Assembly: GCA_041645165.1 (NCBI GenBank)
Contig: JBAZQN010000006.1
Span: 4,933 to 68,932, forward strand
Length of the DNA: 64,000 nucleotides
Source of the DNA: Patescibacteria group bacterium
GTDB lineage: Bacteria; Patescibacteriota; Patescibacteriia; 2-02-FULL-49-11
Direction: 5' to 3'
This document shows, one piece after another, positions 7,250-61,329 of the stretch. Numbering within the stretch: the stretch's first letter is position 1; each line of letters begins with the position of its first letter. The notes under the pieces are model-generated. The model did not search any database and was not told the DNA's origin. It was given only the letters and a program-made list of their open reading frames with translations. Made by a program: the position numbers and the translations under genes.

Positions 7250-9508
7250 TTAGATCATTGCTGATTTCTTCTTTCGAATAAATAGCCTTACCCCTGCGGC
7301 GAGCGCAACCAATATTGGCACACCGATAAGATTAAACAACCTCACCCTCTGCCGCAGAGTGTCGCTCGGGAACCCGAGGGGGCTCGGGATGCGCGTCTTG
7401 GACCGCACGCTGATAAGCGCTTCATCCTGCGTCAGCCAATCAACGGTATTCAACGCAAAGGTCAAATTGGGGCTTCCTTCCTGCATGAACTGATCACTCG
7501 CCATTTTCGCGCTCCCCACCAACACCAACCTCCCGCTCTTCTTGAGGGTTTGCCCTGCGGAAGAGTGCACCACCATGGACACTGCAGCAATATTCTTTCC
7601 GAGCTCATCCTTATTTGCCTTTAAGGGAGCTTGAGGGTCAATATTCACAGGCAGGGACTTCGCAAATCCGCCGTCAGTGGTGGTGAGAAGTTCCTGTATT
7701 TCATTACCCTCGCCTTTATCGGTCCGCTCGACTAACGACGCCCATGGTAACATTACCGAAGTGAGATCTCCTGCAATGGGGTTCGCCGTAACCACATGCG
7801 CGCGCACCCAATAGGGATATGGCAGGATCAGGGAAAGGAACCCGCTCTGGATGGTCACATTCTCATACGAACGCACATCGGCAAGGATCCGGGGGGCGAC
7901 ACGGGCGCCGAATGGAGCAAAGAGATCCCCGTTTGAATCAACATACTCCTGCGCGGTAAATGTCTGTGCATCCACGTTCGCCCTATCAATAAATGCCAGC
8001 ATACTTCCTCCTTGCTCAATGTAATTCCGGATGGCCTGCACTGCGCTGTCGCCAAGATCTTGAGTTGGCCCTAAGAGGATCGCTGCATCGGTTTCCTGGG
8101 CGATAACCGGCGTGGACGTGCTCATATCTGTATCAGTAACCGCGTCTAATCGGCTCAGCGCCTGGCGGAATGCGCCCGCAGGCTCCTCCCCGAAACCAGT
8201 TAGAAAGGTGACATTAGCTTTCTTGGGATCGGTAAGCGATTTAATGGACCTCAAAAGCCGGTATTCCAAATCATCGCTCCGATCGATAAAGGGGATCACT
8301 TCTTTCCCGTCTGTATACAAAGTAGCGAGGCCAAACATACCCTTTTGGGCTTGAAATACATCCTTTTCGAGCACATTGAACTGCATCTCGGTGATGCCTA
8401 ACGCCCTCGCCTCCTCTATCGCATCCGACCCTTCCTCCACGTTTTTATATTCCACCACGACATTCCCTCTCCCCTGTGATTGAAAATCTGACAGTAAATC
8501 TTGCACATCGCGTTTTACCAACGCGATCTGGGAAGGCAACTCTTTGGTGGAAAAAAGCTTAATGGTCACGAGATCCGGCAGTGCGCGCACAATAGTTTTC
8601 GTGGCAGGAGACAATGTATAGACGCGATTCTGGGTAAAATCAATGCGCCCCCGAAGGTATGCGCCCGCAAGGTTGAGCCCAAGGGTAAGTACTATAATAA
8701 GCATCGATCCATAAAAATACCGGCGTCGCTGAGGCGCATGGGGCGACAAACGTTCACGCATGAGGAGCCACCCCGCGATGCCAAAAGCCGCACCGCTCAC
8801 GGTTATGAAATATACAAAATCCCGTATGTCCAACACGCCCCTCGTTATATTGTAATAATGGGCGCTGATCGAGAGATGTTCTGCCACCACGCGTACTGAT
8901 GCAGGGAGGCCGACGGTGACGACCTCTGCCCCTGCGATCGTGAACACGAAACTCACCCCCGCGCTGATAAGGAACGAAGTCACTTGGTGGCGCACTCCTG
9001 CGGAGGCCGCAAGGCTAATGCATGAAAACACAAACGCCAAAAACATGGCGCCGAGATATTGCGCCGCCACAATGCCGAAATCAAAACTGCCAAACCCTCG
9101 CAGGGTTAAAACCACCGGCAACGTGAGGATAAACGTGATGAGGAAAAACGACCATACGGAAAGCAGTTTCCCTGCCAAATACACCCATGGATTCACCGGC
9201 TGCGCGAGCGCCGTTTCAAGCGTCCCTGATTTTCTCTCTTCCGCAATAAGCCGCATGCTCACCGCAGGGACTAAGAAAAGCAGGAGCCAGGGAAAAAGCT
9301 CAAACATCGGCCGCAAGGTGGCGATGGGATTAACGGCAAGTGAACGAAAATAAAAAAATGAATTGAATACGAGGGCAACGATAAGCAGGAGGTAACCGCC
9401 GGGATGGTCAAACCACGCGCGGAGTTCTCGTTGTACGATGGCAATGATTTGTCGAACCGCTATCATACAAAAATAATTACTAGATCTATTATCGTTTATA
9501 ATTCTCAA
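7250..9508 (-). CDS. fused ABC-2 type permease / GldG-like auxiliary component
   Basis: 752 aa. N-terminal ~250 aa has 6 TM (ABC-2 permease-like). A large extracytoplasmic domain follows, then a C-terminal TM anchor (LFNLIGVPILVALAAGVRLFI). Adjacent to the ABC ATPase gene. Confidence 0.65.
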   Translation of the reverse strand: MRIINDNRSSNYFCMIAVRQIIAIVQRELRAWFDHPGGYLLLIVALVFNSFFYFRSLAVNPIATLRPMFELFPWLLLFLVPAVSMRLIAEERKSGTLETALAQPVNPWVYLAGKLLSVWSFFLITFILTLPVVLTLRGFGSFDFGIVAAQYLGAMFLAFVFSCISLAASAGVRHQVTSFLISAGVSFVFTIAGAEVVTVGLPASVRVVAEHLSISAHYYNITRGVLDIRDFVYFITVSGAAFGIAGWLLMRERLSPHAPQRRRYFYGSMLIIVLTLGLNLAGAYLRGRIDFTQNRVYTLSPATKTIVRALPDLVTIKLFSTKELPSQIALVKRDVQDLLSDFQSQGRGNVVVEYKNVEEGSDAIEEARALGITEMQFNVLEKDVFQAQKGMFGLATLYTDGKEVIPFIDRSDDLEYRLLRSIKSLTDPKKANVTFLTGFGEEPAGAFRQALSRLDAVTDTDMSTSTPVIAQETDAAILLGPTQDLGDSAVQAIRNYIEQGGSMLAFIDRANVDAQTFTAQEYVDSNGDLFAPFGARVAPRILADVRSYENVTIQSGFLSLILPYPYWVRAHVVTANPIAGDLTSVMLPWASLVERTDKGEGNEIQELLTTTDGGFAKSLPVNIDPQAPLKANKDELGKNIAAVSMVVHSSAGQTLKKSGRLVLVGSAKMASDQFMQEGSPNLTFALNTVDWLTQDEALISVRSKTRIPSPLGFPSDTLRQRVRLFNLIGVPILVALAAGVRLFIRKKKSAMI

Positions 9509-9660
9509 TTTTCAAATCTCAATTTTCAAATAATTTTTAATGAATCAATGATGCAATGTTTGAAAATTGAATCATTGCGATATTGATTGTCCCGCCGCAA
9601 CGGGATCCCGCGTCCGCGGGAAAAATTGGAAATTGAATATTGAAAATTCTAACTCTCTAT
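9505..9660. repeat. AT-rich palindromic intergenic element (family E'), paralogous to 31030-31140, with a GCGGGATCCCGC hairpin
   Basis: Shares caattttcaaataattttt?aatg...caatgtttgaaaattgaa with 31040-31120. Core is gtcccgccgcaacgggatcccgcgtccgcggga. Confidence 0.6.
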
Positions 9661-10581
9661 GGTAAGCTCCCGAAATACCTCCTCAAGGCTTTTTTCTTCT
9701 TCGTATAATTCCGCAATGACCCAGCGGTGTTCAACCGCACATTGAAATACCGCTGTCCGTATATCAACGTCACGCGGGGTGAGGAGCTCAAAACGCTTAA
9801 ATTTATTTTTTTGATTCCCCTCGAACGCTTCCACGCGCGCGACGCCTCCGAGTTTCTCTAATGTTTCCCGAATCCCGCTCCCCTGTGCTTCCACGACCGT
9901 CCGCTTTTCACCGCTTGCGCGGTGTTCTAGTTCATCCACGGTGCCGTCAGCGACAATGCGGCCTTCCCGAATCACTATCACCCGTGAACAGGTCATCGCA
10001 ACTTCAGTAAGGACATGCGTGGAAAGAAGCACTGTTTTTTCCCGTCCCAAGCGTTTTATCAATTCCCTTATTTCATGCCGCTGATTCGGGTCCAACCCTT
10101 CGGTGGGTTCGTCAAAAATAAGGATATCCGGATCTCCCACGATCGCCTGCGCCAAGCCCACCCGCTGGCGAAAACCTTTTGAGAGCTCGGCAATGGGGCG
10201 GCGCCATACCTTTTCAAGGCCGGCAAGCCCAATCGCGCGTTCAACTGCACTCTTTTTGTCCGCTCCCCACATCCCATGGAGCGCTGCGGTATAGTTAAGC
10301 GCCTGCGTCACGAGCAAGTCTTCATGCAAAGGATTATTTTCAGGCAGATATCCTAAACGTTTCTTCAAAGAAAGAGGATCCTCCAATGCATTTTGGCCGT
10401 CAAAATTTATTTCACCCTTATCAGGCTCCAAGACCCCCGCGATTATCCTCATCGTGGTCGTCTTGCCGGCGCCGTTGGGACCCAAAAATCCTATCACTTC
10501 GCCCTTTGAAATGGAAAAAGTGAGCTCATCAACCGCTTTCACCTTGCCAAATGATTTGGATATTTTATCTAACGTGAGCAT
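9649..10581 (-). CDS. ABC transporter ATP-binding protein
   Basis: Walker A GPNGAGKTTTMR, signature LSKGFRQRVGLA, Walker B ILIFDEPTEGLD. Annotated start is the ATG at 10579-10581 (MLTLDKISKSF). The 9 upstream codons of the tracked ORF translate the element TIR. Confidence 0.9.
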   Translation of the reverse strand: MLTLDKISKSFGKVKAVDELTFSISKGEVIGFLGPNGAGKTTTMRIIAGVLEPDKGEINFDGQNALEDPLSLKKRLGYLPENNPLHEDLLVTQALNYTAALHGMWGADKKSAVERAIGLAGLEKVWRRPIAELSKGFRQRVGLAQAIVGDPDILIFDEPTEGLDPNQRHEIRELIKRLGREKTVLLSTHVLTEVAMTCSRVIVIREGRIVADGTVDELEHRASGEKRTVVEAQGSGIRETLEKLGGVARVEAFEGNQKNKFKRFELLTPRDVDIRTAVFQCAVEHRWVIAELYEEEKSLEEVFRELTIES

Positions 10582-10815
10582 ACCCCGTATATCAACATCC
10601 AACGCCAAACGCGGCTGGCATTGGAGAAAACCATAATATGAATGCGATCTTAGAGTATTGTATCATAACAAGATTGGAAGATAACGTTTGGCGATCGGTG
10701 AGGGAGGCTATGTAAAAATCTACCATACGTTCAATCCGCATCCAGTCGTACCTCATCTATTATTTTCTGCACAAAGGTTCCCGCCTCCCTCTTGGATGTT
10801 GTATTGCGGGGCATA
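10579..10815 (-). repeat. family A TIR element copy A1 (MITE-like, ~237 bp), abutting the start codon of the ABC ATPase gene
   Basis: TIRs are cataccccgtatatcaacatccaa ... ttggatgttgtattgcggggcata. Internal nested inverted repeats cgccaaacg/cgtttggcg and gagggagg/cctccctc. The terminal CAT (=ATG) is the gene start. Confidence 0.75.
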
Positions 10816-12126: not shown

Positions 12127-14091
12127 TTATTGCCCTAAAGACCGCACCGCCTGTAGTATAGCACCTCTGTCAATTTCCTCAAAACCCAATAATTCCGCGG
12201 GCGTGCCGCTCTTCGGAGTTTTGCGCACTGCGAGTGATTTAAACGCGGCGCCAGTGCCCGCGATTGCTTCTGCCACCGCCTCTCCCAATCCCCCTTCCGG
12301 CACATGGTCTTCCACGGTAATAATCTTGCCTGTCTCTTGAGCCGCCCTTACGAGCGCCGCGCGATCGATGGGTTTTAGAGAATAACAATCTATGATTCTC
12401 AATTCAATTCCTTCTTGCGCCAAAGTATCTGCCGCGGCAAGCGCTTCAAAAAGGGTAATGCCGGCGGCAACGATAGTGCAGACGTCTCGCGCGCTTGACC
12501 TTAACGTCTTACTGCCGCCGATCGGAAACTGTTCCTCCGGACCATAAATGACAGGCGTTGCTCCGCGTGTCGTGCGGAGGTAAACAATGCCATTATAACG
12601 CACAGCTTCATGAACTAGTCTTTCCGTAGCAGGGGCATCTGACGGATAAAGCACCACTGCATCCTGCACCGCCCTAAACATGGCAATGTCCTCGAGCCCC
12701 ATCTGGCTGGGGCCGTCTTCGCCGATAGACACGCCTGCATGCGAACCCACAAACTTCACATTCGCTTTGCTGTACGATGCCATCCTGATCTGGTCAAAGG
12801 CGCGGGTAAAGAACGCCGCAAAAGTGCTGCAAAACGGGATCATACCTCGCTTCGCAAGCCCTACGGCGACACCCACCATATTCTGCTCCGCGATAAACAT
12901 TTCCACAAACTGCTGGGGGGTGCCCTTCTTCACCAATTCTGCAAAGGTGGAATTTTTCACTTCAGCGTCCACCGCCACCACCCGCGGATCCTCACGCGCC
13001 AGTTTCTCCAACGCTTCCCCATACGCTTTCCGCGTCGCGATCAAGTCTCCCTTCTTGTACTCGGTATTAGGTATTACGTATTTCGTATTATGCACTTGAT
13101 CGCTCGCCCCCTGATACCTACTACCTGATACCTGATACGAAACGTCTGGCATTGCAACTGTCCCTCTTAATCGAGTATCAATTTCTCTCAACTCCCCTAA
13201 TGCTTTTTCATATTCTTCAACAGAGAGCGCTTTGCCATGCCACCCTTCCTTATTCTCCATGCACGACACACCCTTCCCCTTTAGGGTCTTTGCGATAATC
13301 ATGGTTGGTTTATCTTGTGTACCCTTAGCCTTGCGATAGGCAGAGAGTATCTCATCAGTATTATGGCCATCCACTATAATCGTTTCCCAGCCAAATGCGG
13401 CGACCCTTCGGGCATACGCGTCCACATCGTGGCCCGCCATAGTCTCTCCGCTCTGCCCCAAACGGTTCACGTCTATAATACCGACTAAATTATCCAGTTT
13501 TTCATGCCCCGCCCACATGATTGCCTCCCACACCGAACCTTCTGCCATTTCGCTGTCTCCGAGAAGCACATACACGCGTGAAACACACCCCTCCTCACTC
13601 CGTTCGGTACCCCTCTCAAGAGGGGAATTACCCGAAGTCCCCTCCTGCGGAGGGGTGTCCCGCCATTGAGGGACGGGGTGGGTAAACCGCTTCAATGCGA
13701 GCGCCATGCCTGCACCTACTGACAGCCCCTGTCCGAGCGAACCAGTCGCCACTTCCGTATAGCGAAACGTCGGCATAGGATGCCCTTCCAGGGGTGAATT
13801 AAATTTTCGCAATGATAAAAGCTCATCTTCGTTTACCGCTCCCGCAGCCGCATAGAGCGCATACAACAAGGGAGCAGCATGCCCTTTAGAAAAAATCACT
13901 CGGTCATTCAAAGGATATTCCGGATGGTCAAGGTCAAAACGCAAAATGCCGCCAAAGAAAAGTACTGTCATGAGATCGGTCGCGGAGAGCGAAGAGCTCG
14001 GATGACCAGACCCTGCCGCGGTCGTCGCGCGAAGGATAAAATAGCGCACCAGCTGCGCGAGATTTTCAAGAGTTTCTTTCGTGGTTTGCAT
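12127..14091 (-). CDS. tkt: transketolase (single-chain short form)
   Basis: GHPSSSLSATDLM...SKGHAAPLLYA (TPP-binding N-domain), plus pyrimidine-binding and C-terminal domains. Contains an extra ~30-aa loop (HPVPQWRDTPPQEGTSGNSPLERGTERSEEGCVS) encoded by a palindromic insert. Confidence 0.9.
   Translation of the reverse strand: MQTTKETLENLAQLVRYFILRATTAAGSGHPSSSLSATDLMTVLFFGGILRFDLDHPEYPLNDRVIFSKGHAAPLLYALYAAAGAVNEDELLSLRKFNSPLEGHPMPTFRYTEVATGSLGQGLSVGAGMALALKRFTHPVPQWRDTPPQEGTSGNSPLERGTERSEEGCVSRVYVLLGDSEMAEGSVWEAIMWAGHEKLDNLVGIIDVNRLGQSGETMAGHDVDAYARRVAAFGWETIIVDGHNTDEILSAYRKAKGTQDKPTMIIAKTLKGKGVSCMENKEGWHGKALSVEEYEKALGELREIDTRLRGTVAMPDVSYQVSGSRYQGASDQVHNTKYVIPNTEYKKGDLIATRKAYGEALEKLAREDPRVVAVDAEVKNSTFAELVKKGTPQQFVEMFIAEQNMVGVAVGLAKRGMIPFCSTFAAFFTRAFDQIRMASYSKANVKFVGSHAGVSIGEDGPSQMGLEDIAMFRAVQDAVVLYPSDAPATERLVHEAVRYNGIVYLRTTRGATPVIYGPEEQFPIGGSKTLRSSARDVCTIVAAGITLFEALAAADTLAQEGIELRIIDCYSLKPIDRAALVRAAQETGKIITVEDHVPEGGLGEAVAEAIAGTGAAFKSLAVRKTPKSGTPAELLGFEEIDRGAILQAVRSLGQ
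13575..13680. repeat. in-frame GC-rich triple-hairpin insertion inside tkt
   Basis: Three hairpins: cccctctcaagagggg, cccctcctgcggagggg, gtcccgccattgagggac. Lies between the conserved GQGLSVGAGMALA and RVYVLLGD motifs. Confidence 0.6.
14041..14091. repeat. direct repeat: tkt 5' end (copy 1, functional start)
   Basis: tagcgcaccagctgcgcgagattttcaagagtttctttcgtggtttgcat, ~90% identical to 16950-17000. Confidence 0.75.
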
Positions 14092-14219
14092 ATTTTTTAT
14101 TGAGTACTTATTTAACCAAATCCAAACCTATTTTAAACGGTACTGATAACGTGCCTTGCTCCCCGATAGCCCAAATGCTCGAACGATGCGGACAAAGAAA
14201 GGCGCTCTGAAGTTGAATG

Positions 14220-16908: not shown

Positions 16909-16949
16909 AAACTCTCAGCATAACAGCAGACAAAACGTCTTATGATTTA

Positions 16950-17000
16950 GTAGCGCACCATCTGCGCGAGATTTTCAAGAGTTTCTTTCGATGCTTGCAT
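16950..17000. repeat. direct repeat: displaced duplicate of tkt 5' end (encodes MQASKETLENLAQMVRY)
   Basis: tagcgcaccatctgcgcgagattttcaagagtttctttcgatgcttgcat. Bounds a ~2.86-kb AT-rich island together with 14041-14091. Confidence 0.75.
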
Positions 17001-17029
17001 ACAATATTATGGTGCAGTATTCTAAAGAT

Positions 17030-18059: not shown

Positions 18060-18302
18060 GAAGTATATCCAAACTATACGAGATTATTGCATAATAATCA
18101 ACTGCAACGGCATTAAAAGGTGGACTCCCTGTGGAAAGAAGGTTAATAGAAGAGCCTTGGGCGCCTTGCAAAAATAACTTCCCACTTAGGGTACAGAATC
18201 GTGCCTTGCTGGTAACCATACATTATGGACATTCATATAAGTTATTTTTTCAGGCGCCCTTGTAATCCTGCCGCATGGCAAGGTACAATACCATAGCAGT
18301 AA

Positions 18303-18405
18303 TGAAATTCGAAATACTAAATCCGAAATCCTAAACCGTTTTGGATTTTGGTAATTGGAATTTTGGGTTTGTTTAGGATTTAGAGTTTAGGATTTAGGAT
18401 TTTCA
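18303..18405. repeat. low-complexity palindromic spacer (family E; AAATCCTAAA.../...TTTAGGATTT arms)
   Basis: gaaatactaaatccgaaatcctaaaccgttttggattttgg...gtttaggatttagagtttaggatttagg. Confidence 0.6.
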
Positions 18406-18411
18406 TTAAGG

Positions 18412-18731
18412 TATGCCCAGTTATACAACTTCCCATATGTTCTTCTATATCTATGTATTGGAGAGTCTGCAGGATAACGAGAGATACGTAGGATATACTC
18501 ATAATCTGAGAAAACGATTAGAAGAACATAATAAGGGTAAGAATTTTGCCACAAAGTTTAGATTACCATTTAAACTCATTTACTTCGAAGGATGTTTTAA
18601 TCAAAACGACGCCAAACGCCGTGAACATTATCTGAAAGGAACCCAAGGTCGAAGGTTCTTAGGACTGCGGCTTCAGGAATACACTCGCAGTCAACCAGCG
18701 TTTGGCGTGGGAAGTTGATATACTGGGTATG
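18412..18731 (+). mobile_element. family A element, long copy A5 carrying a GIY-YIG nuclease ORF (candidate autonomous element), abutting the dnaB start
   Basis: Left end (g)tatgcccagttatacaacttccca matches the far TIR of A1–A4. Right end cgtttggcgtgggaagttgatatactgggtATG matches the near TIR. Flanked by ATG at 18413-18415 and 18729-18731. Confidence 0.7.
18413..18718 (+). CDS. small GIY-YIG nuclease family protein (COG2827/UPF0213-like)
   Basis: …FFYIYVLESLQDNERYVGYTHNLRKRLEEHNKGKNFATKFRLPFKLIYFEGC…AKRREHYLK. Has the GIY…YIG, R and E(H)N signature. Alternative start at ATG 18437. Confidence 0.7.
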   Translation: MPSYTTSHMFFYIYVLESLQDNERYVGYTHNLRKRLEEHNKGKNFATKFRLPFKLIYFEGCFNQNDAKRREHYLKGTQGRRFLGLRLQEYTRSQPAFGVGS

Positions 18732-20129
18732 CCCATCTCCCCCGACCGCCTTCCTCCCCAAAATCTTGAAGCAGAGCAATCGGTGCTGGGAAGCCTGCTT
18801 ATTGATAAAGAGGCAATTACGAAAATTGCCGATTTTTTGCATCCGGAAGATTTCTACCGCGACCTGCACGGGCTCATTTTTGAAACAATGCTTGAGCTCT
18901 ATGAGCGCAAAGAGCCCATCGACTTGCTCTCGCTTTCCGGACGGCTTGAAGAGAAAAAGAAACTGGAAATGGTGGGCGGGAGAGGATTTTTGGCAGGCCT
19001 TGCCAATGTGGTGCCCACGGCAAGCCACGTGGTGCACTACGGGCAGATCGTGCAGAAGAAGGCGATATTGAGGAGGCTTATTCATGCCGCCGCAGAAGTG
19101 GGTGAACTGGGATTCAATGAATCGGAAGACGTGGACGTGGTGCTCGATAAGGCGGAACAGCGGCTCTTCAATGTCTCGCAGCACAGCAGACGCCAAAATT
19201 TCGTCCCCGTCAAGCAGTTGCTTACCGAGGCATTTGATCGCATCGATGAGCTGCACCGCGAGTCAGGGAAACTGCGGGGCTTTAGGACAGGCTTCAAAGA
19301 ACTCGACCACAAGCTCGCGGGGCTCCAGCGCTCAAACCTCATCATTGTCGCGGCGCGGCCCAGCATGGGAAAAACGTCGCTCACCATAGACATCGCGCGC
19401 CATATCGCCACGCAGGAACATGTGCCCGTGGGTATATTTTCCCTTGAAATGTCAAAAGAGGAACTGGTGGACAGGATGCTCTGCGCAGAAGCGAACGTGG
19501 ACCTCTGGAAACTCCGCACCGGCAGGCTTTCGGACCGCGAAACGCCCCAAGGGGAAAGCGACTTTACCGCGATCGGCCGCGCCATGGGCACCCTCGCGGA
19601 GGCGCCTATTTATATTGATGATTCCGCGATACTCAACGTCATGGAAATCCGCACCAAAGCGCGGCGCTTGCATGCGGAAACCGGATTGGGATTCATCGTG
19701 GTAGATTACCTCCAGCTTATGGAAAGCGGCAGCAATCTGGAGAGCAGGGTCCAGGAAGTCGCGCAAATCACGCGGGGCTTAAAAGCGCTCGCCCGCGAAC
19801 TCAATGTTCCGGTACTCGCCGTGTCGCAGCTTTCGCGGCAGGCGGAAAACCGCCCCGGCTCCATTCCGCGCCTTGCCGACCTCCGGGAATCAGGATCCAT
19901 AGAACAGGACGCGGACGTGGTGATGATTATTTTCCGCGAAGAAATGTACAAGCCTGATACGCCGCGCAAGCACATCGCGGAAATCCATATCGCCAAACAC
20001 CGCAACGGCCCAACCGGTATTGTAGAACTCTACTTCGACGCGGAAAAAACCTCGTTTAAAAATCTGGAAAAGACAATGCCCATCACTAACATGCCACCTC
20101 CTCCTTCTGTTAGCAATCCATCATTTTAG
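18729..20129 (+). CDS. dnaB: replicative DNA helicase DnaB
   Basis: N-domain …PQNLEAEQSVLGSLLID…, Walker A ARPSMGKTSL, …LSQLSRQAENR… Annotated from the element-terminal ATG; the tracked ORF begins 27 nt earlier at a TTG inside the TIR. Confidence 0.9.
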   Translation: MPISPDRLPPQNLEAEQSVLGSLLIDKEAITKIADFLHPEDFYRDLHGLIFETMLELYERKEPIDLLSLSGRLEEKKKLEMVGGRGFLAGLANVVPTASHVVHYGQIVQKKAILRRLIHAAAEVGELGFNESEDVDVVLDKAEQRLFNVSQHSRRQNFVPVKQLLTEAFDRIDELHRESGKLRGFRTGFKELDHKLAGLQRSNLIIVAARPSMGKTSLTIDIARHIATQEHVPVGIFSLEMSKEELVDRMLCAEANVDLWKLRTGRLSDRETPQGESDFTAIGRAMGTLAEAPIYIDDSAILNVMEIRTKARRLHAETGLGFIVVDYLQLMESGSNLESRVQEVAQITRGLKALARELNVPVLAVSQLSRQAENRPGSIPRLADLRESGSIEQDADVVMIIFREEMYKPDTPRKHIAEIHIAKHRNGPTGIVELYFDAEKTSFKNLEKTMPITNMPPPPSVSNPSF

Positions 20130-24135: not shown

Positions 24136-24196
24136 GAAGTTAGAAGCTGAAATTTGGAATTAACAATACCGTATACAATAATCCGATAGCCTCTTG

Positions 24197-24248
24197 TCAT
24201 TCCCGCCCCGTATCACGGTACGGGGTAAACTCCGGCGGGAATCCAGAA
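24197..24248. repeat. nested GC hairpin element family G copy 1
   Basis: cattcccgccCCCGTATCACGGTACGGGGtaaactccggcgggaatccagaa. Inner stem is 7 bp; outer is attcccgcc/ggcgggaat. Confidence 0.6.
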
Positions 24249-26592: not shown

Positions 26593-26635
26593 TGAAGATG
26601 ATTATTAGTAGACTTTCCCAATTGCCCTCACTGTC

Positions 26636-26688
26636 ATTCACGCCCCGCATCACGGTACGGGGTAAACTCCGGCGGGAATCCAGAACAA
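26636..26688. repeat. family G nested hairpin copy 2
   Basis: cattcacgccCCCGCATCACGGTACGGGGtaaactccggcgggaatccagaa. Confidence 0.6.
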
Positions 26689-37660: not shown

Positions 37661-37667
37661 CCTTGCA

Positions 37668-38066
37668 TTACTTAATCCTCTCTTTAACCTTTTCTTTCCC
37701 TATTGCCTCATGCTCTCCTTTACCGAGTCGTGCCACTCTCTCTCCCAACACCAAAATGACATGGCTGGTCCTGCGGAGGATGGGATTTGCGCGGCCCATC
37801 GCCCGCGGAAAAGTCCTTTTCAGTGAAGGCCCCCCGTCAACGCGTATCTCCTTCACGTAAAGATTGATAGACTCAAGGTGAAAATTATGTTTCGCGTTCG
37901 CTACACCTGATTCCACAAGCTTTTTCAAAGGCTTTGCGCTATGATGCGCATCAAACGAAAGGAGCGCAATTGCTTTAGTGGCATCGATCCCTTTTATGGT
38001 CTCAGCCACCAGCCGCACCTTCCTTGGCGCCATCCGGAGATACCTTAATTTTGCAGTGATGTCCAT
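37668..38066 (-). CDS. rplV: 50S ribosomal protein L22
   Basis: MDITAKLRYLRMAPRKVRLVAETIKG…. Confidence 0.9.
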   Translation of the reverse strand: MDITAKLRYLRMAPRKVRLVAETIKGIDATKAIALLSFDAHHSAKPLKKLVESGVANAKHNFHLESINLYVKEIRVDGGPSLKRTFPRAMGRANPILRRTSHVILVLGERVARLGKGEHEAIGKEKVKERIK

Positions 38067-38170
38067 ACCCGCCTAAATTTTGCACCAGTCTGGTGCACTT
38101 AATTTCTTAATAACGATTACTCGACCTATTGTATCTCACTATTGTTCCTGCCCGCAAAACTTAGGCGGGC
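38064..38170 (-). repeat. family B TIR element copy B3. Left TIR supplies the rplV ATG; right TIR overlaps the rpsS stop codon.
   Basis: CATacccgcctaaattttgcaccagtctggtgcacttaatttc…cccgcaaaacTTAggcgggc. TTA at 38161-38163 is the rpsS TAA. Confidence 0.75.
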
Positions 38171-38496
38171 TTTTCTTTCTCGTCAGGTTTCGTTTGTGCG
38201 ACTTCTGTCTCCGCCTGTTTCGCTTCGATCTCTCTCTGCATGCGGCCGCCATGTCGCACAAATTTGCGGGTTAGGGAAAATTCCCCCAACCGATGCCCTA
38301 CCATATTCTCCACCACGAGGACTGGCACATGGATTTTGCCGTTATGCACGCCAAACACAAAGCCAACCATTTCCGGGGTAATGACGCTCGCGCGCGCCCA
38401 TGTTTTAATAACCGTTTTATCTCCGGATTTTAATGACTTCACGCGCTGCAAGAGTTTTTGATCTATGTAAGGCCCTTTTTTAAGTGAACGTGACAT
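38161..38496 (-). CDS. rpsS: 30S ribosomal protein S19 (with short K/E-rich C-terminal tail)
   Basis: [16 protein letters not shown]…HNGK…. Confidence 0.9.
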
Positions 38497-38602
38497 ACCC
38501 GCCTAAATTTTGCACATTCTTTAAGTGCATTAATTGATTAATAATTCATTACTCGACATAGAGAATTACCATTTTAGCTACCCGCAAAACTTAGGCGGGC
38601 AT
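38494..38602 (-). repeat. family B TIR element copy B4 abutting the rpsS start (divergent interior)
   Basis: catacccgcctaaattttgcacattctttaagtgcattaattg…cccgcaaaacttaggcgggcat. Confidence 0.7.
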
Positions 38603-39481: not shown

Positions 39482-39486
39482 ACCTT

Positions 39487-39610
39487 AATGGAAAATACCA
39501 AACTCTAAATCCTAAATAAATACAAAATTCGAAAATTCAAAAACAAAGTTTCGTCGTTTTTATTTTTTGGATTTGTTTAGAGTTTAGAATTTAGTGCTTA
39601 GGATTTATCA
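39487..39610. repeat. family E low-complexity palindromic spacer
   Basis: aaaataccaaactctaaatcctaaataaatacaaaattcg…ttggatttgtttagagtttagaatttagtgcttaggattt. Confidence 0.6.
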
Positions 39611-39615
39611 CTTTG

Positions 39616-45953: not shown

Positions 45954-46161
45954 ACCCGCCTAAATTTTGCACTTCATTAAGTGCATAATATGGTAATAAG
46001 GAATGAATCGACCAAATGAATCTATACCTAGTGCCGTTACAATTTAATTCGGCTATAACTGATATGCTTATTTTACCATCTGTATTGAAATACTAATCTC
46101 TTGCGTGTCGCAAAACTTAATTGTAACGGTACTAGTTCATGCCCGCAAAACTTAGGCGGGC
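45951..46161 (-). repeat. family B TIR element copy B5 (long, ~211 bp) abutting the fusA start
   Basis: catacccgcctaaattttgcacttcattaagtgcataat … gttcatgcccgcaaaacttaggcgggc. Confidence 0.7.
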
Positions 46162-57026: not shown

Positions 57027-57175
57027 CGACCAAGTTAGACATTGACAGTTTTCGGAAGAAGGTACGCGCTCGCTTCGCTCGCGCGCTGGGGGGATTTTAT
57101 TCTGATTTTCCGCCACAATCCGCCATTCGCCCGACCAATCCCAGCCGACTTTTTTGGAGAGCAGGCGGCGGTTCG
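57027..57175. repeat. perfect 149-bp inverted repeat, left copy (IR-L), immediately upstream of the serine recombinase gene
   Basis: Reverse complement of 57027-57175 is identical to 58661-58809. Confidence 0.85.
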
Positions 57176-57291: not shown

Positions 57292-58887
57292 ATGAACACC
57301 AAATACTTTTTATACGCTCGCAAATCAACCGAAGACGAAGAACGGCAAGTGATGAGTATTGAAGCGCAGCTTACGGAGTTGGCTGAATTTGCCAAGCGAG
57401 AAAATATTGAAATTGCCGAAACATTTATTGAATCAAAAAGCGCAAAGAAGCCAGGGCGAGAAGTGTTTAACGAGATGATGAGCAGAGTTCAGGAAAGTAA
57501 AACTACGGTGGGACTTCTCGCGTGGCACCCGGATCGTCTCGCCCGCAACAGCGTTGATGGCGGTTTGATAATTTACTCCATAGACACCGCCAAAATCGCT
57601 TCTTTGCGCTTTCCCACATTTTGGTTTGAGCCAACTCCGCAAGGGCTTTTTATGCTCCAAGTCGCCTTTGGCCAATCAAAATATTATTCCGACAATTTGT
57701 CGGAAAATGTAAAGCGCGGGATTCGCCAAAAACTCAGGCGGGGGGAGTGGCCCGGCCTTGCGCCGTTTGGGTATGTGAACAATCCGAAAACACGAACGAT
57801 TGAGCCAGACCCAACAAAAGCGAGAGTTATCAAAAAAGCGTTTGAAGAATACGCGCAAGGCCGTCATACACTTTTGTCTTTAGGTGAACGCCTGAGTTTT
57901 TGGGGCGTGGTGAGCGGAACCGGAAAACCGCTTTGCAAAGCAACGCTCCAACGAATGCTTACCAATAAAGCGCATCTCGGTTTAATTGTCCATAACGACG
58001 AAACTTACGAGGGCGGTTTTCCAGCAATTGTTTCCAGAGCGACTTTTGAGAAAGTGCAGGAAGTGTTAAAGAGCCGAGCCAAGCCGCGTCATTCTAAAAA
58101 GCGGCATAACTTCCCATTTACCGGACTGCTTACTTGCGGCGAGTGCGGCGCGGCTATTACGGCACAATACGCGCATGGACACGGTGGAACTTACAAATAC
58201 TATCGTTGCACCAAACGGCTTGGCTCGTGTTCGCAAAGTTATTTGCGCGAGGACTTACTCACCGAACAACTGAAAATAGAAATCTCAAAAGTCGCTCTCT
58301 GCGAAGACTCGAAAGAAAAGATGCTGGCGCAAGTGGAAGTGTGGGAAAAAGAAAATATCCAGTCTTCGCAATCTTTCGCCCAAAATTTGGAAAAGGAAAT
58401 CAAGGAAACCGAACAAAAACTTGATAGATTGGTAAACGCCTTTTTGGACGGAAGCATAGAAAAAGAAACCTACCTTACCAAAAAGGATGAACTCATCACA
58501 ACCAAAACAGACCTCCAGCAAAGGAAGTCTGATTTTGGGCGAAAGGGAAACAATTGGATCGAACCTTTGCGCGAATGGATTTTAGCCGCTCACCACGCGG
58601 AAAAACTGGCTTCGTCAAACGAATTTGATGAAATCAAATCGTTTGTTGAAAAAATTGGAACGAACCGCCGCCTGCTCTCCAAAAAAGTCGGCTGGGATTG
58701 GTCGGGCGAATGGCGGATTGTGGCGGAAAATCAGAATAAAATCCCCCCAGCGCGCGAGCGAAGCGAGCGCGTACCTTCTTCCGAAAACTGTCAATGTCTA
58801 ACTTGGTCGGGGCGGGGAGAATCGAACTCCCGCTACAAGCACCCCATGCTCGCGTACTACCATTATACTACGCCCCGTAAATTGTAG
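57292..58887 (+). CDS. large serine recombinase (resolvase/invertase N-domain + recombinase domain + zinc ribbon)
   Basis: YARKSTEDEERQ…SIEAQ (catalytic Ser), …HPDRLARN…, Zn ribbon CGECGAAI…YYRC. The last ~28 codons read through tRNA-Pro (antisense), so the true stop is probably earlier or overlapping. Confidence 0.85.
   Translation: MNTKYFLYARKSTEDEERQVMSIEAQLTELAEFAKRENIEIAETFIESKSAKKPGREVFNEMMSRVQESKTTVGLLAWHPDRLARNSVDGGLIIYSIDTAKIASLRFPTFWFEPTPQGLFMLQVAFGQSKYYSDNLSENVKRGIRQKLRRGEWPGLAPFGYVNNPKTRTIEPDPTKARVIKKAFEEYAQGRHTLLSLGERLSFWGVVSGTGKPLCKATLQRMLTNKAHLGLIVHNDETYEGGFPAIVSRATFEKVQEVLKSRAKPRHSKKRHNFPFTGLLTCGECGAAITAQYAHGHGGTYKYYRCTKRLGSCSQSYLREDLLTEQLKIEISKVALCEDSKEKMLAQVEVWEKENIQSSQSFAQNLEKEIKETEQKLDRLVNAFLDGSIEKETYLTKKDELITTKTDLQQRKSDFGRKGNNWIEPLREWILAAHHAEKLASSNEFDEIKSFVEKIGTNRRLLSKKVGWDWSGEWRIVAENQNKIPPARERSERVPSSENCQCLTWSGRGESNSRYKHPMLAYYHYTTPRKL
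58661..58809. repeat. perfect 149-bp inverted repeat, right copy (IR-R). Encodes the C-terminal ~48 aa of the recombinase and includes the last 6 nt of tRNA-Pro.
   Basis: cgaaccgccgcctgctctccaaaaaagtcggctgggattggtcgggcgaatggcgg…ctgtcaatgtctaacttggtcg. Confidence 0.85.
58804..58877 (-). tRNA. tRNA-Pro (anticodon GGG)
   Basis: CGGGGCGTAGTATAATGGTAGTACGCGAGCATGGGGTGCTTGTAGCGGGAGTTCGATTCTCCCCGCCCCGACCA. Confidence 0.8.
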
Positions 58888-61130: not shown

Positions 61131-61137
61131 AAATTAT

Positions 61138-61272
61138 GAAATCCTAAACACTAAACTCTAAACCCTAAACAAATCTAAAATCCAAATATCAAAATCCAAA
61201 ATGTAAATGTAAAATCTATAAATTTTAATCTATCATTTTGATTTTTGCATTTTGGATTTTACATTCCTCCCC
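61138..61272. repeat. family E low-complexity palindromic spacer
   Basis: aaatcctaaacactaaactctaaaccctaaacaaatctaaaatccaaatatcaaaatccaaaatg…ttttgatttttgcattttggatttt. Confidence 0.6.
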
Positions 61273-61329
61273 GATAAAACAAAACCTCCCCGTTAAAATC
61301 GAGGAAGTTGCAAACATATTAACTCAGGA

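Follow-up and report, generated by a model that had tools for sequence, protein, structure and literature searches.

A 64,000-nucleotide stretch of a Patescibacteria group bacterium genome (contig JBAZQN010000006.1; hereafter the window, meaning the whole of this stretch) carries, immediately upstream of dnaB, a 312-bp unit which encodes a single small GIY-YIG nuclease between terminal inverted repeats (TIRs) and which is a DNA insertion at the dnaB start codon accompanied by duplication of the tetramer TATG. Shorter, non-coding copies with the same ends occupy other start codons of the same genome. The reading that best explains these observations, and to which we assign a probability of roughly 0.7, is that the unit is a complete and probably autonomous representative of a Patescibacteria family of very small insertion sequence (IS)-like elements, attended by derivatives resembling MITEs (miniature inverted-repeat transposable elements) and mobilised by the GIY-YIG nuclease. 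That these are mobile elements is very well supported; there are good reasons, though no proof, for the sequence-based proposal that the nuclease mobilises them.

Insertion of the unit at the dnaB start codon

The unit body (18416-18727, 312 bp; Table 1) is bordered by 18-bp imperfect TIRs and by a direct repeat of TATG, in the layout cattaaggTATG[312 bp]TATGCCCATCTCC; the first TATG is preceded by cattaagg, and dnaB opens with TATG CCC ATC TCC. Three mismatches between the TIRs are fixed, being the same in all copies, and the TIR search gave no match in 100 shuffled sequences. The GIY-YIG open reading frame (ORF), the only one of the unit, opens at the duplicated ATG and ends with a TGA that falls within the right TIR, leaving 10 nt between this stop and the ATG of dnaB.

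Close DnaB homologues were searched, their contigs retrieved and the dnaB starts compared. Three relatives precisely lack the unit and hold the tetramer once: TATG in locus L140 (DnaB 96% identical; ..gggatTATGCCTATCTCC, with the dnaB start ..ttcaattaagggatTATGCCTATCTCCCCCGACCGC and the empty site ..GGGATTATGCCTATC..), AATG in L138 (94%; ..aaaaATGCCCATCTCC, dnaB start ..ctcaataaaaATGCCCATCTCCCCTGACCGC) and CATG in L139 (82%; ..gccATGCCTTCC, dnaB start ..ctgccATGCCTTCCTCTCCCGACCGC). No TIR-like sequence was found at the dnaB starts of these three loci, and deletion of the unit together with one TATG from the window yields the L140 arrangement. A preliminary description of the region, made from its letters alone, had proposed insertion exactly at a start codon with duplication of the three bases ATG. 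The start-codon position is borne out here and, with the window counted in, in about 74 of 84 copies, and so is a duplication at both ends; its length has to be corrected to TATG, since T precedes both ATGs in all five copies of the window. Neither an unvarying dnaB locus nor a coincidental likeness of leader sequences, the two outcomes named there as fatal to the proposal, was encountered.

About 125 nt upstream there is a single sigma-70-like site (18260-18289) with a TACAAT box that is kept in L138 and L140. As evidence of a promoter for the unit it was set aside, sites of this kind being no more numerous than in shuffles. No plus-strand terminator-like site was found between the GIY-YIG and dnaB ORFs; the upstream site and the missing terminator fit co-transcription with dnaB. 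As a separate feature of this genome, long AT-rich spacers made of degenerate AAATCCTAAA / TTTAGGATTT-type units in both orientations lie between many genes, including those of the ribosomal-protein operon (e.g. 18291-18407, 31707-31814, 37532-37674, 39486-39611 and 61133-61278).

Related copies in the window

Repeat finding and alignment confirmed that the TIRs of the dnaB-upstream unit are common to the four elements of about 230 bp that had been recognised elsewhere in the window. All five copies have a left end of TATG followed by CCC(C/A)G(C/T)(A/T)ATACAAC(A/T)TCC and a right end of GTTTGGCGT(T/G)GGA(T/A)GTTGATATAC(G/T)GGG followed by TATG. As already described, only the dnaB copy holds an intact GIY-YIG ORF, the other four being non-coding; in the 34986 copy the frame from the 5' ATG is nevertheless open to the TGA of the right TIR (72 codons). 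The 32181 and 36145 copies are 96% identical. The GAGGGAGG/CCTCCCTC stem reported for the short copies is indeed present in their minimum-free-energy fold. They had also been said to keep the TIRs plus some 100 bp at the 3' side, of which the TIRs hold good, whereas conservation with the coding copy on that side is confined to the last ~35 nt and the GCCAAACG box; the remaining 3' interior is 61-66% identical, about 1-3 standard deviations above shuffles.

Table 1. Positions in the window of the coding element, its host gene and the related elements (TSD, target-site duplication).
Feature	Positions	Strand	Remarks
5' TSD copy, TATG	18412-18415	+	Formerly the start codon of dnaB, ATG 18413-18415 now starts the GIY-YIG ORF; single TATG in L140 empty site
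Left TIR, CCCAGTTATACAACTTCC	18416-18433	+	Codes residues 2-7 (PSYTTS)
GIY-YIG ORF, 101 aa	18413-18718	+	Pfam PF01541, E 3.3e-17; TGA 18716-18718 within right TIR
Box 1, ACGCCAAACGC, subterminal stem 5' strand	18609-18619	+	Within DAKRRE codons; covariation
Box 1', GCGTTTGGCGT, subterminal stem 3' strand	18698-18708	+	Within AFG codons; covariation
Right TIR, GGAAGTTGATATACTGGG	18710-18727	+	Invariant in nearly all copies
3' TSD copy, TATG	18728-18731	+	ATG 18729-18731 is the dnaB start codon
dnaB, host gene and insertion target	18729-20129	+	Pfam DnaB and DnaB_C, E 5e-100
229-bp copy	10583-10811 (with flanks 10579-10815)	-	TATG both sides; 3' ATG starts ABC-transporter ATPase 9649-10581
222-bp copy	32181-32402 (with flanks 32177-32406)	-	TATG both sides; 3' ATG starts L18 31811-32179
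225-bp copy	34986-35210 (with flanks 34982-35214)	-	TATG both sides; 3' ATG starts L24 34676-34984
223-bp copy	36145-36367 (with flanks 36141-36371)	-	TATG both sides; 3' ATG starts L29 35943-36143
Second-family elements	33901-34008, 34555-34662, 38063-38170, 38493-38600, about 45954-46060	-	Each ends on a start codon

A second family of elements, of about 105 bp, shows the same layout in the window, (TATG)-CCCGCCTAAGTTTTGC ... GCAAAATTTAGGCGGG-TATG (hyphens here and below mark element boundaries), its hosts being an unidentified ORF, L5, L22, S19 and EF-G. The metagenomic GIY-YIG unit L185 bears a TIR, CCCGCCTAAATTTTTGATA, which matches this second family, so that the latter probably also belongs to a GIY-YIG element.

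The family in other genomes and metagenomes

When the right-TIR pattern, from which the ATG was left out, was run against a single genome of each species, at least 120 stretches were retrieved. Among the matches listed, window included, 84 copies possess both TIRs; most matches lie in metagenome-assembled genomes of Patescibacteria and the remainder are chance matches without a left TIR. The 84 two-ended copies fall into size classes of 63-71 bp (TIR-only hairpins), 111-158, 194-236 and 306-324 bp, and nearly all those in the largest class contain an intact GIY-YIG ORF of 99-105 aa starting at the 5' ATG. The autonomous-versus-MITE relationship suspected from the window recurs in other genomes, since one coding copy accompanied by several short ones is found in JBBTRL01, CAYYRI01 and JACQDT01 as it is here, and L060 is a clear deletion derivative when set against L063. 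The recommended search for TIR boundaries, empty sites and further GIY-YIG copies thus found all three in public genomes. Many copies lie at contig ends. No element longer than 390 bp with the family TIRs was detected within the loci, no left TIR lay further off than 480 nt, and the right-TIR pattern had no match in viral contigs.

The flanking tetramers are identical on both sides in 68 of the 84 two-ended copies and comprise 11 different sequences: TATG in 52 copies, ATGA in 4, CATG, AATG and CATA in 2 each, and CTTG, ATAA, TTTG, TAAG, TTTA and TGGA in one copy each. Flanks that differ between copies and yet match within each copy are the signature of a target-site duplication. The dnaB locus is not the only one with an uninserted counterpart, for in the distant relative L098 the stop of the ribosomal protein gene L14 and the start of L24, the host of another window copy, are 13 nt apart and separated by a single TATG. 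Moreover, the GIY-YIG ORF of loci L026 and L120 contains a nested TIR-only mini-element of 63-78 bp in reverse orientation, flanked by CAAG on both sides at a site where uninterrupted copies have CAAG once; the same site is occupied in the two genomes, and the resulting composites measure 375-390 bp (L026, minus strand, around 1730-2108; L120, 1415-1804).

In one genome all copies of a 229-bp subfamily (loci L066, L083, L108 and L076, the last being JBBUGP010000098.1) show an ATGA duplication, with TIRs identical to those of TATG copies; two tandem copies in L076 share one ATGA. The presence of ATGA throughout this subfamily makes the flanking tetramer look heritable within it.

A protein-profile scan of metagenomes yielded 494 relatives, and 80 loci were kept. 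They display at least 15 TIR types, each around a single GIY-YIG ORF in a unit of ~300-330 bp, and comparison of these loci showed the TIR sequence and the GIY-YIG lineage to change together. Most TIR types conform to (T)ATG-CCC..GGG-(T)ATG; a clear TIR is present in 69 loci, of which 39 conform to the strict pattern ATG-CC..GG-(T)ATG followed by a host ORF, and about a dozen further loci have the same layout outside the strict pattern. A few lineages lie off ATG, for instance that with the TIR CCCCGTTAGAAATT. In L146 and L148 (Ga0315291_10002923 and Ga0315277_10000285) a coding copy sits, as an independent insertion, on the dnaB start codon of another lineage, whose DnaB is 58% identical to that of the window over 216 aligned residues. 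A divergent GIY-YIG unit with a perfect 20-bp TIR, GCCCCTCACTTGGAAAGGAT, was also noticed in L040 (5020-5330) adjoining a tRNA-5'-like sequence, GGGGCCTATAGCATAGTGGTAGTG; some lineages may target tRNA genes instead of start codons.

Start codons as insertion sites

An ATG is present at the 3' junction in 74 of the 84 copies, and in 70 of these 74 it opens a frame that is 50 codons or longer or that reaches the end of the locus. Many hosts are housekeeping genes, including those for S12, L18, L15, S10, GAPDH, FtsA, YchF, GatB, Fpg and RadA. Both CATA/CATA copies are in reverse orientation on the start codons of opposite-strand genes, encoding Pth and a peroxiredoxin. In L114, and also in L137, which holds a divergent lineage, a one-base shift of the duplication gives the host a GTG start that uses the last G of the element. 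Start-codon insertion holds in other TIR/GIY-YIG lineages too, and copies that are non-coding, with no need of translation, show the same bias.

Once the elements are removed, the window contains ~47 start-codon TATGs, ~93 intergenic TATG/CATA sites and ~350 intragenic ones, the start-codon TATGs amounting to about one third of the non-coding-compatible TATG sites. From these counts, a preference for TATG alone would not place almost every copy on a start codon. The flanks resemble ordinary TATG gene starts, and a candidate enrichment of hosts beginning with ATG-CC (Met-Pro) was not borne out.

As regards the genes themselves, the first ATG is preceded by T in 49 of the 64 gene starts of the window (77%), often as GG(G)TATG, compared with 50% in the other element-bearing Patescibacteria loci and 41% in unrelated loci with chance matches; the host initiation context, leaderless starts or past insertions are candidate causes.

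The GIY-YIG protein

The encoded protein scores 63 bits with PF01541, against a cut-off of 22.6, and residues Y12, Y14, Y25, G27, R35, E38, H39 and E71 are invariant in family alignments. It has at least 548 close homologues, all of about 101 aa and 70-84% identical, in which both the TIR-encoded N-terminal MPSNTTS and the C-terminal AFGxGS are conserved. The best solved relative is the UPF0213 protein BH0048 (1zg2; E 5e-6 with the single sequence, 3e-7 with a profile), others being EF2693 (1ywl) and, weakly, SLX1; this similarity and the single domain of about 100 aa place it with the UPF0213/Slx1-like small GIY-YIG proteins (COG2827 type), in line with its earlier designation as a small COG2827-type nuclease. 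NCBIfam returned sub-threshold matches to group I intron endonuclease only, and the protein has no DNA-binding domain outside its ~80-residue core.

Six 312-bp copies from different genomes share 98-100% of the nucleotides of their TIRs (left 0.98, right 1.00), as against 68% of the nucleotides and 70% of the amino acids of the ORF core, and conserved residues use the same codon in 100% of the cases in TIR codons and in 50% in the core. What is conserved is therefore the DNA sequence in the ends and the protein sequence in the core. With nonsynonymous divergence (pN) at ~0.1-0.3 and synonymous divergence (pS) at ~0.8, i.e. saturated, selection on the ORF is, by these estimates, purifying. The high protein identity was therefore not put down to recent horizontal spread: with synonymous sites saturated, the conservation reflects selection. 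The GIY-YIG proteins are 71-74% identical where the DnaB proteins are 58% identical, a weak comparison that covers only the N-terminal half of DnaB.

Subterminal stem and translation

Three nucleotides inside the right TIR, GCGTTTGGC (AFG codons) pairs with GCCAAACGC (AKR of DAKRRE) ~70 nt upstream; in the window copy 1 nt (18709) separates the end of Box 1' from the right TIR, and in most copies 3 nt lie between the TIR and a 9-bp core stem. Among 37 distinct copies, 9 of the 11 stem pairs have changed on both sides, as in GCCCAACGC/GCGTTGGGC, GCCAGACGC/GCGTCTGGC, GCGAGACGC/GCGTCTCGC and GCTAAACGA/TCGTTTAGC; paired cells amount to 88.8%, compared with 26-43% in slid controls, and none of 500 shuffles reached the observed values. 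In some cases the encoded residue is replaced on both sides (K to Q together with F to L), and covariation in spite of this identifies the stem as a constraint on the nucleic acid. Short copies retain the stem with a 3-5-nt loop, sometimes with other sequence. In single-strand folds of short and coding copies the TIRs close a stem with both AUGs at its base (z -4.0 and -5.9, respectively, the former in the 32181-32402 copy). Searches of Rfam identified only tRNAs in the window at the gathering score, and nothing on the elements at E up to 1.

In coding copies the stop and the host start are invariably 10 nt apart. A 5' ATG is present in 48 short copies; the length of 26 of these is a multiple of three, and in 11 the frame is open from this ATG to the TGA in the TIR, compared with 1.4 expected from shuffled interiors. 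These frames favour a route in which translation would enter the element from the captured start codon and be handed over to the host ORF.

Other repeats and mobile sequences in the window

A perfect 149-nt inverted repeat (57027-57175 and 58661-58809) brackets the ORF of a large serine recombinase (57292-58887; Resolvase, Recombinase and Zn-ribbon domains) whose end overlaps tRNA-Pro (58804-58877), and the arrangement could represent either an integrated element or a segment capable of inversion. Two further repeats occur twice each: 14035-14092 and 16944-17001 (88% identical) at the 5' ends of two minus-strand genes, and 9491-9577 and 31025-31111 (86% identical) in intergenic positions.

Discussion

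Mechanistically, we envisage that the nuclease would recognise the ends of its own element, i.e. the TIRs plus the subterminal stem, possibly as folded single-stranded DNA, and would cut at the element boundaries and, with a stagger of ~4 nt, at the target, after which host repair or ligation would finish the move. The 5' copy of the duplicated ATG would retain the translation-initiation region of the host, so that the element would need neither a promoter nor a ribosome-binding site of its own, and the host ORF could be translated by re-initiation 10 nt past the TGA of the element; alternatively, ribosomes on the left arm could melt the TIR hairpin that would otherwise bury the host AUG. Through either route insertion at a start codon would be nearly harmless. 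In its strongest form, the proposal describes autonomous DNA transposons that rely on a ~100-residue GIY-YIG nuclease as their only transposition protein, actively target start codons in either orientation, parasitise the initiation signal of the host and return translation to it 10 nt downstream; for this complete scenario we see the odds as even.

Several points weigh against these proposals. The flanks of 50 TATG sites (20 nt upstream and 12 nt downstream) revealed no motif beyond (T)ATG, which leaves a mechanistic targeting of start codons unexplained, and purifying selection against insertions elsewhere could explain part of the start-codon bias. The duplication is not uniform, some 12 copies being consistent with a 3-bp duplication of ATG or with a frame that has shifted, and copies within one subfamily are not independent, so some of our counts are inflated. 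Recent deletion of the window coding copy as the source of the short copies beside it is ruled out by their internal identity of 61-66%, which marks them as not being its recent derivatives. Most short copies, furthermore, have early stops; termination-reinitiation thus cannot be the general route of host expression, and melting of the hairpin by ribosomes or some other route would also have to be possible. Finally, no GIY-YIG enzyme is known to join DNA or to catalyse strand transfer, and a single domain of ~100 residues carrying out both excision and integration would need host functions.

This last point also speaks for the strongest competing view, in which the repeats are mobile and the GIY-YIG protein is not their transposase, the movement being due to host functions or to an unlinked transposase. 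Further in its favour, the covarying subterminal hairpin resembles the protein-binding hairpin of Ssn-type nucleases, and Ssn itself, a single-domain GIY-YIG protein of ~94 aa with hairpin repeats in hundreds of copies, has a demonstrated role in transformation and not in transposition (PMC11893778). Against it, the TIRs were found on no longer element, ORF and element coincide exactly in extent, the TIR type follows the protein lineage in at least 15 lineages, genomes with MITE-like copies typically hold one coding copy too, and the window has no match to the SRM motif as published. We judge this alternative unlikely.

Much less probable still is a free-standing homing-endonuclease gene copied into place by homologous repair, with TIRs that are incidental. 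GIY-YIG is a classic homing-endonuclease fold, the NCBIfam matches to group I intron endonuclease point the same way from far below the cut-off, and phage seg/mob genes are intergenic and compact, like the present element; phage T4 Seg and I-TevI share with it both the fold and the character of a selfish compact gene between host genes. Yet homing copies between homologous loci and leaves no target duplication, and homing endonucleases have additional DNA-binding domains, a single cognate locus and no TIRs, duplications or MITE-like derivatives. The present family has settled at dozens of target genes that are unrelated to one another, shows 3-4-bp duplications and TIRs and includes non-coding derivatives, and its protein offers no DNA-binding domain beyond the ~80-residue core.

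A role at the RNA level would see the TIR-closed hairpin as an intervening sequence of the mRNA that is removed or cut (e.g. by RNase III) or as a translational regulator of the downstream gene, kept for this function and not as a transposon. The folds in which the TIRs close the whole element including both AUGs (z -4.0 and -5.9) and the Shine-Dalgarno-like GAGGGAGG paired with CCTCCCTC in short copies would suit such a function, and it can coexist with transposition. It cannot replace transposition, because empty sites in close relatives and duplications that vary between copies and match within them show insertion at the DNA level; Rfam, moreover, gave no match even at E up to 1, and as a full explanation we find this view very improbable. 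A conserved dnaB leader or upstream gene resembling other loci by coincidence has nothing but its adjacency to dnaB to commend it and is refuted, for practical purposes entirely, by its absence at the dnaB of relatives with 96%, 94% and 82% identity and its presence at unrelated genes in many genomes.

Among published systems the nearest is Ssn/SRM (Chenal et al. 2025, Nat Commun, PMC11893778), in which a ~94-aa single-domain GIY-YIG protein cuts single-stranded DNA beside the NTS/SRM hairpin, a repeat that stands on either side of the ssn gene and has hundreds of copies. Both systems combine a single-domain GIY-YIG protein of ~94-100 aa with a gene bracketed by inverted or hairpin repeats that are multiplied elsewhere, and in both protein and repeat co-evolve. 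The family described here differs in having TIRs at its tips, 3-4-bp duplications, empty sites, deletion derivatives and start-codon insertion, and its protein is by sequence nearest to the UPF0213/Slx1 type, Ssn being defined as cd10448. The authors of that study noted that NTS-ssnA-NTS resembles an insertion sequence and suggested domestication; their paper reports no TIR/duplication structure, empty sites or start-codon preference and makes no mention of Patescibacteria (PMC11893778). The SRM regular expression HGTCWY..YYVSBRH..WNVSBRG..RNCYNB (PMC11893778) has no match on either strand of the window, the flanks of the present unit being unrelated 18-bp TIRs.

Two hairpin repeats elsewhere in the window (24195-24248 and 26632-26685; TGTCATTCCCGCC[CCGTATCACGGTACGGGGTAAACTCC]GGCGGGAATCCAGAA, 96% identical) bracket three genes; their arms resemble the Neisseria NTS/dRS3 consensus CGTCATTCCCGCG..GCGGGAATCYRG, with a much longer loop and no SRM match.

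Classical IS/MITE pairs, such as IS630/Tc1 with Correia-like repeats, likewise present TIRs, a short duplication, one ORF, multiple copies and internally deleted derivatives. Here, in contrast, GIY-YIG is all that is encoded, with no DDE, DEDD, HUH, Ser, Tyr or Cas1 transposase; the ORF starts within the target duplication and the target is a start codon. The smallest known insertion sequences are of ~0.7 kb (IS200), and a 312-bp coding element is less than half that size. IS200/IS605 and REP/RAYT resemble the family in being very small, in relying on recognition of a subterminal hairpin and in pairing a single small nuclease-type protein with dispersed palindromic repeats. Their transposases are of the Y1 HUH kind, and they have no TIRs and no target duplication. 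In the present family TIRs and duplications are the rule and there is no HUH protein, so only the subterminal hairpin is shared. The elements can be filed as a combination of known kinds, namely an IS/MITE architecture with a GIY-YIG-plus-repeat association. In the literature, of which our coverage is incomplete, no description was found of GIY-YIG elements with TIRs and target duplications, of Patescibacteria MITEs or of elements that target start codons; a large family of tiny start-codon-inserting elements in Patescibacteria has apparently gone undescribed so far.

For the annotation of these genomes, the insertions lengthen the intergenic regions of Patescibacteria, even within the ribosomal-protein operon, give rise to false N-terminal extensions (LALDVDIxGM...) and cause contigs to break. 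If GIY-YIG is the mobilising enzyme, the targeting of start codons, an unusual kind of target, could serve as a programmable or site-biased insertion tool, and the family would constitute a new enzymatic class of prokaryotic transposable element, with a chemistry not represented among known prokaryotic insertion sequences. At ~0.3 kb its members would be the smallest autonomous mobile elements known, a new lower limit of autonomy reached because promoter, ribosome-binding site and start codon are outsourced to the host. It would also give a testable role to the small uncharacterised GIY-YIG proteins of the UPF0213/Ssn-like kind, of which a representative search retrieved 6,427 clusters at E up to 1e-3, and would support the idea of an IS origin raised for Ssn.

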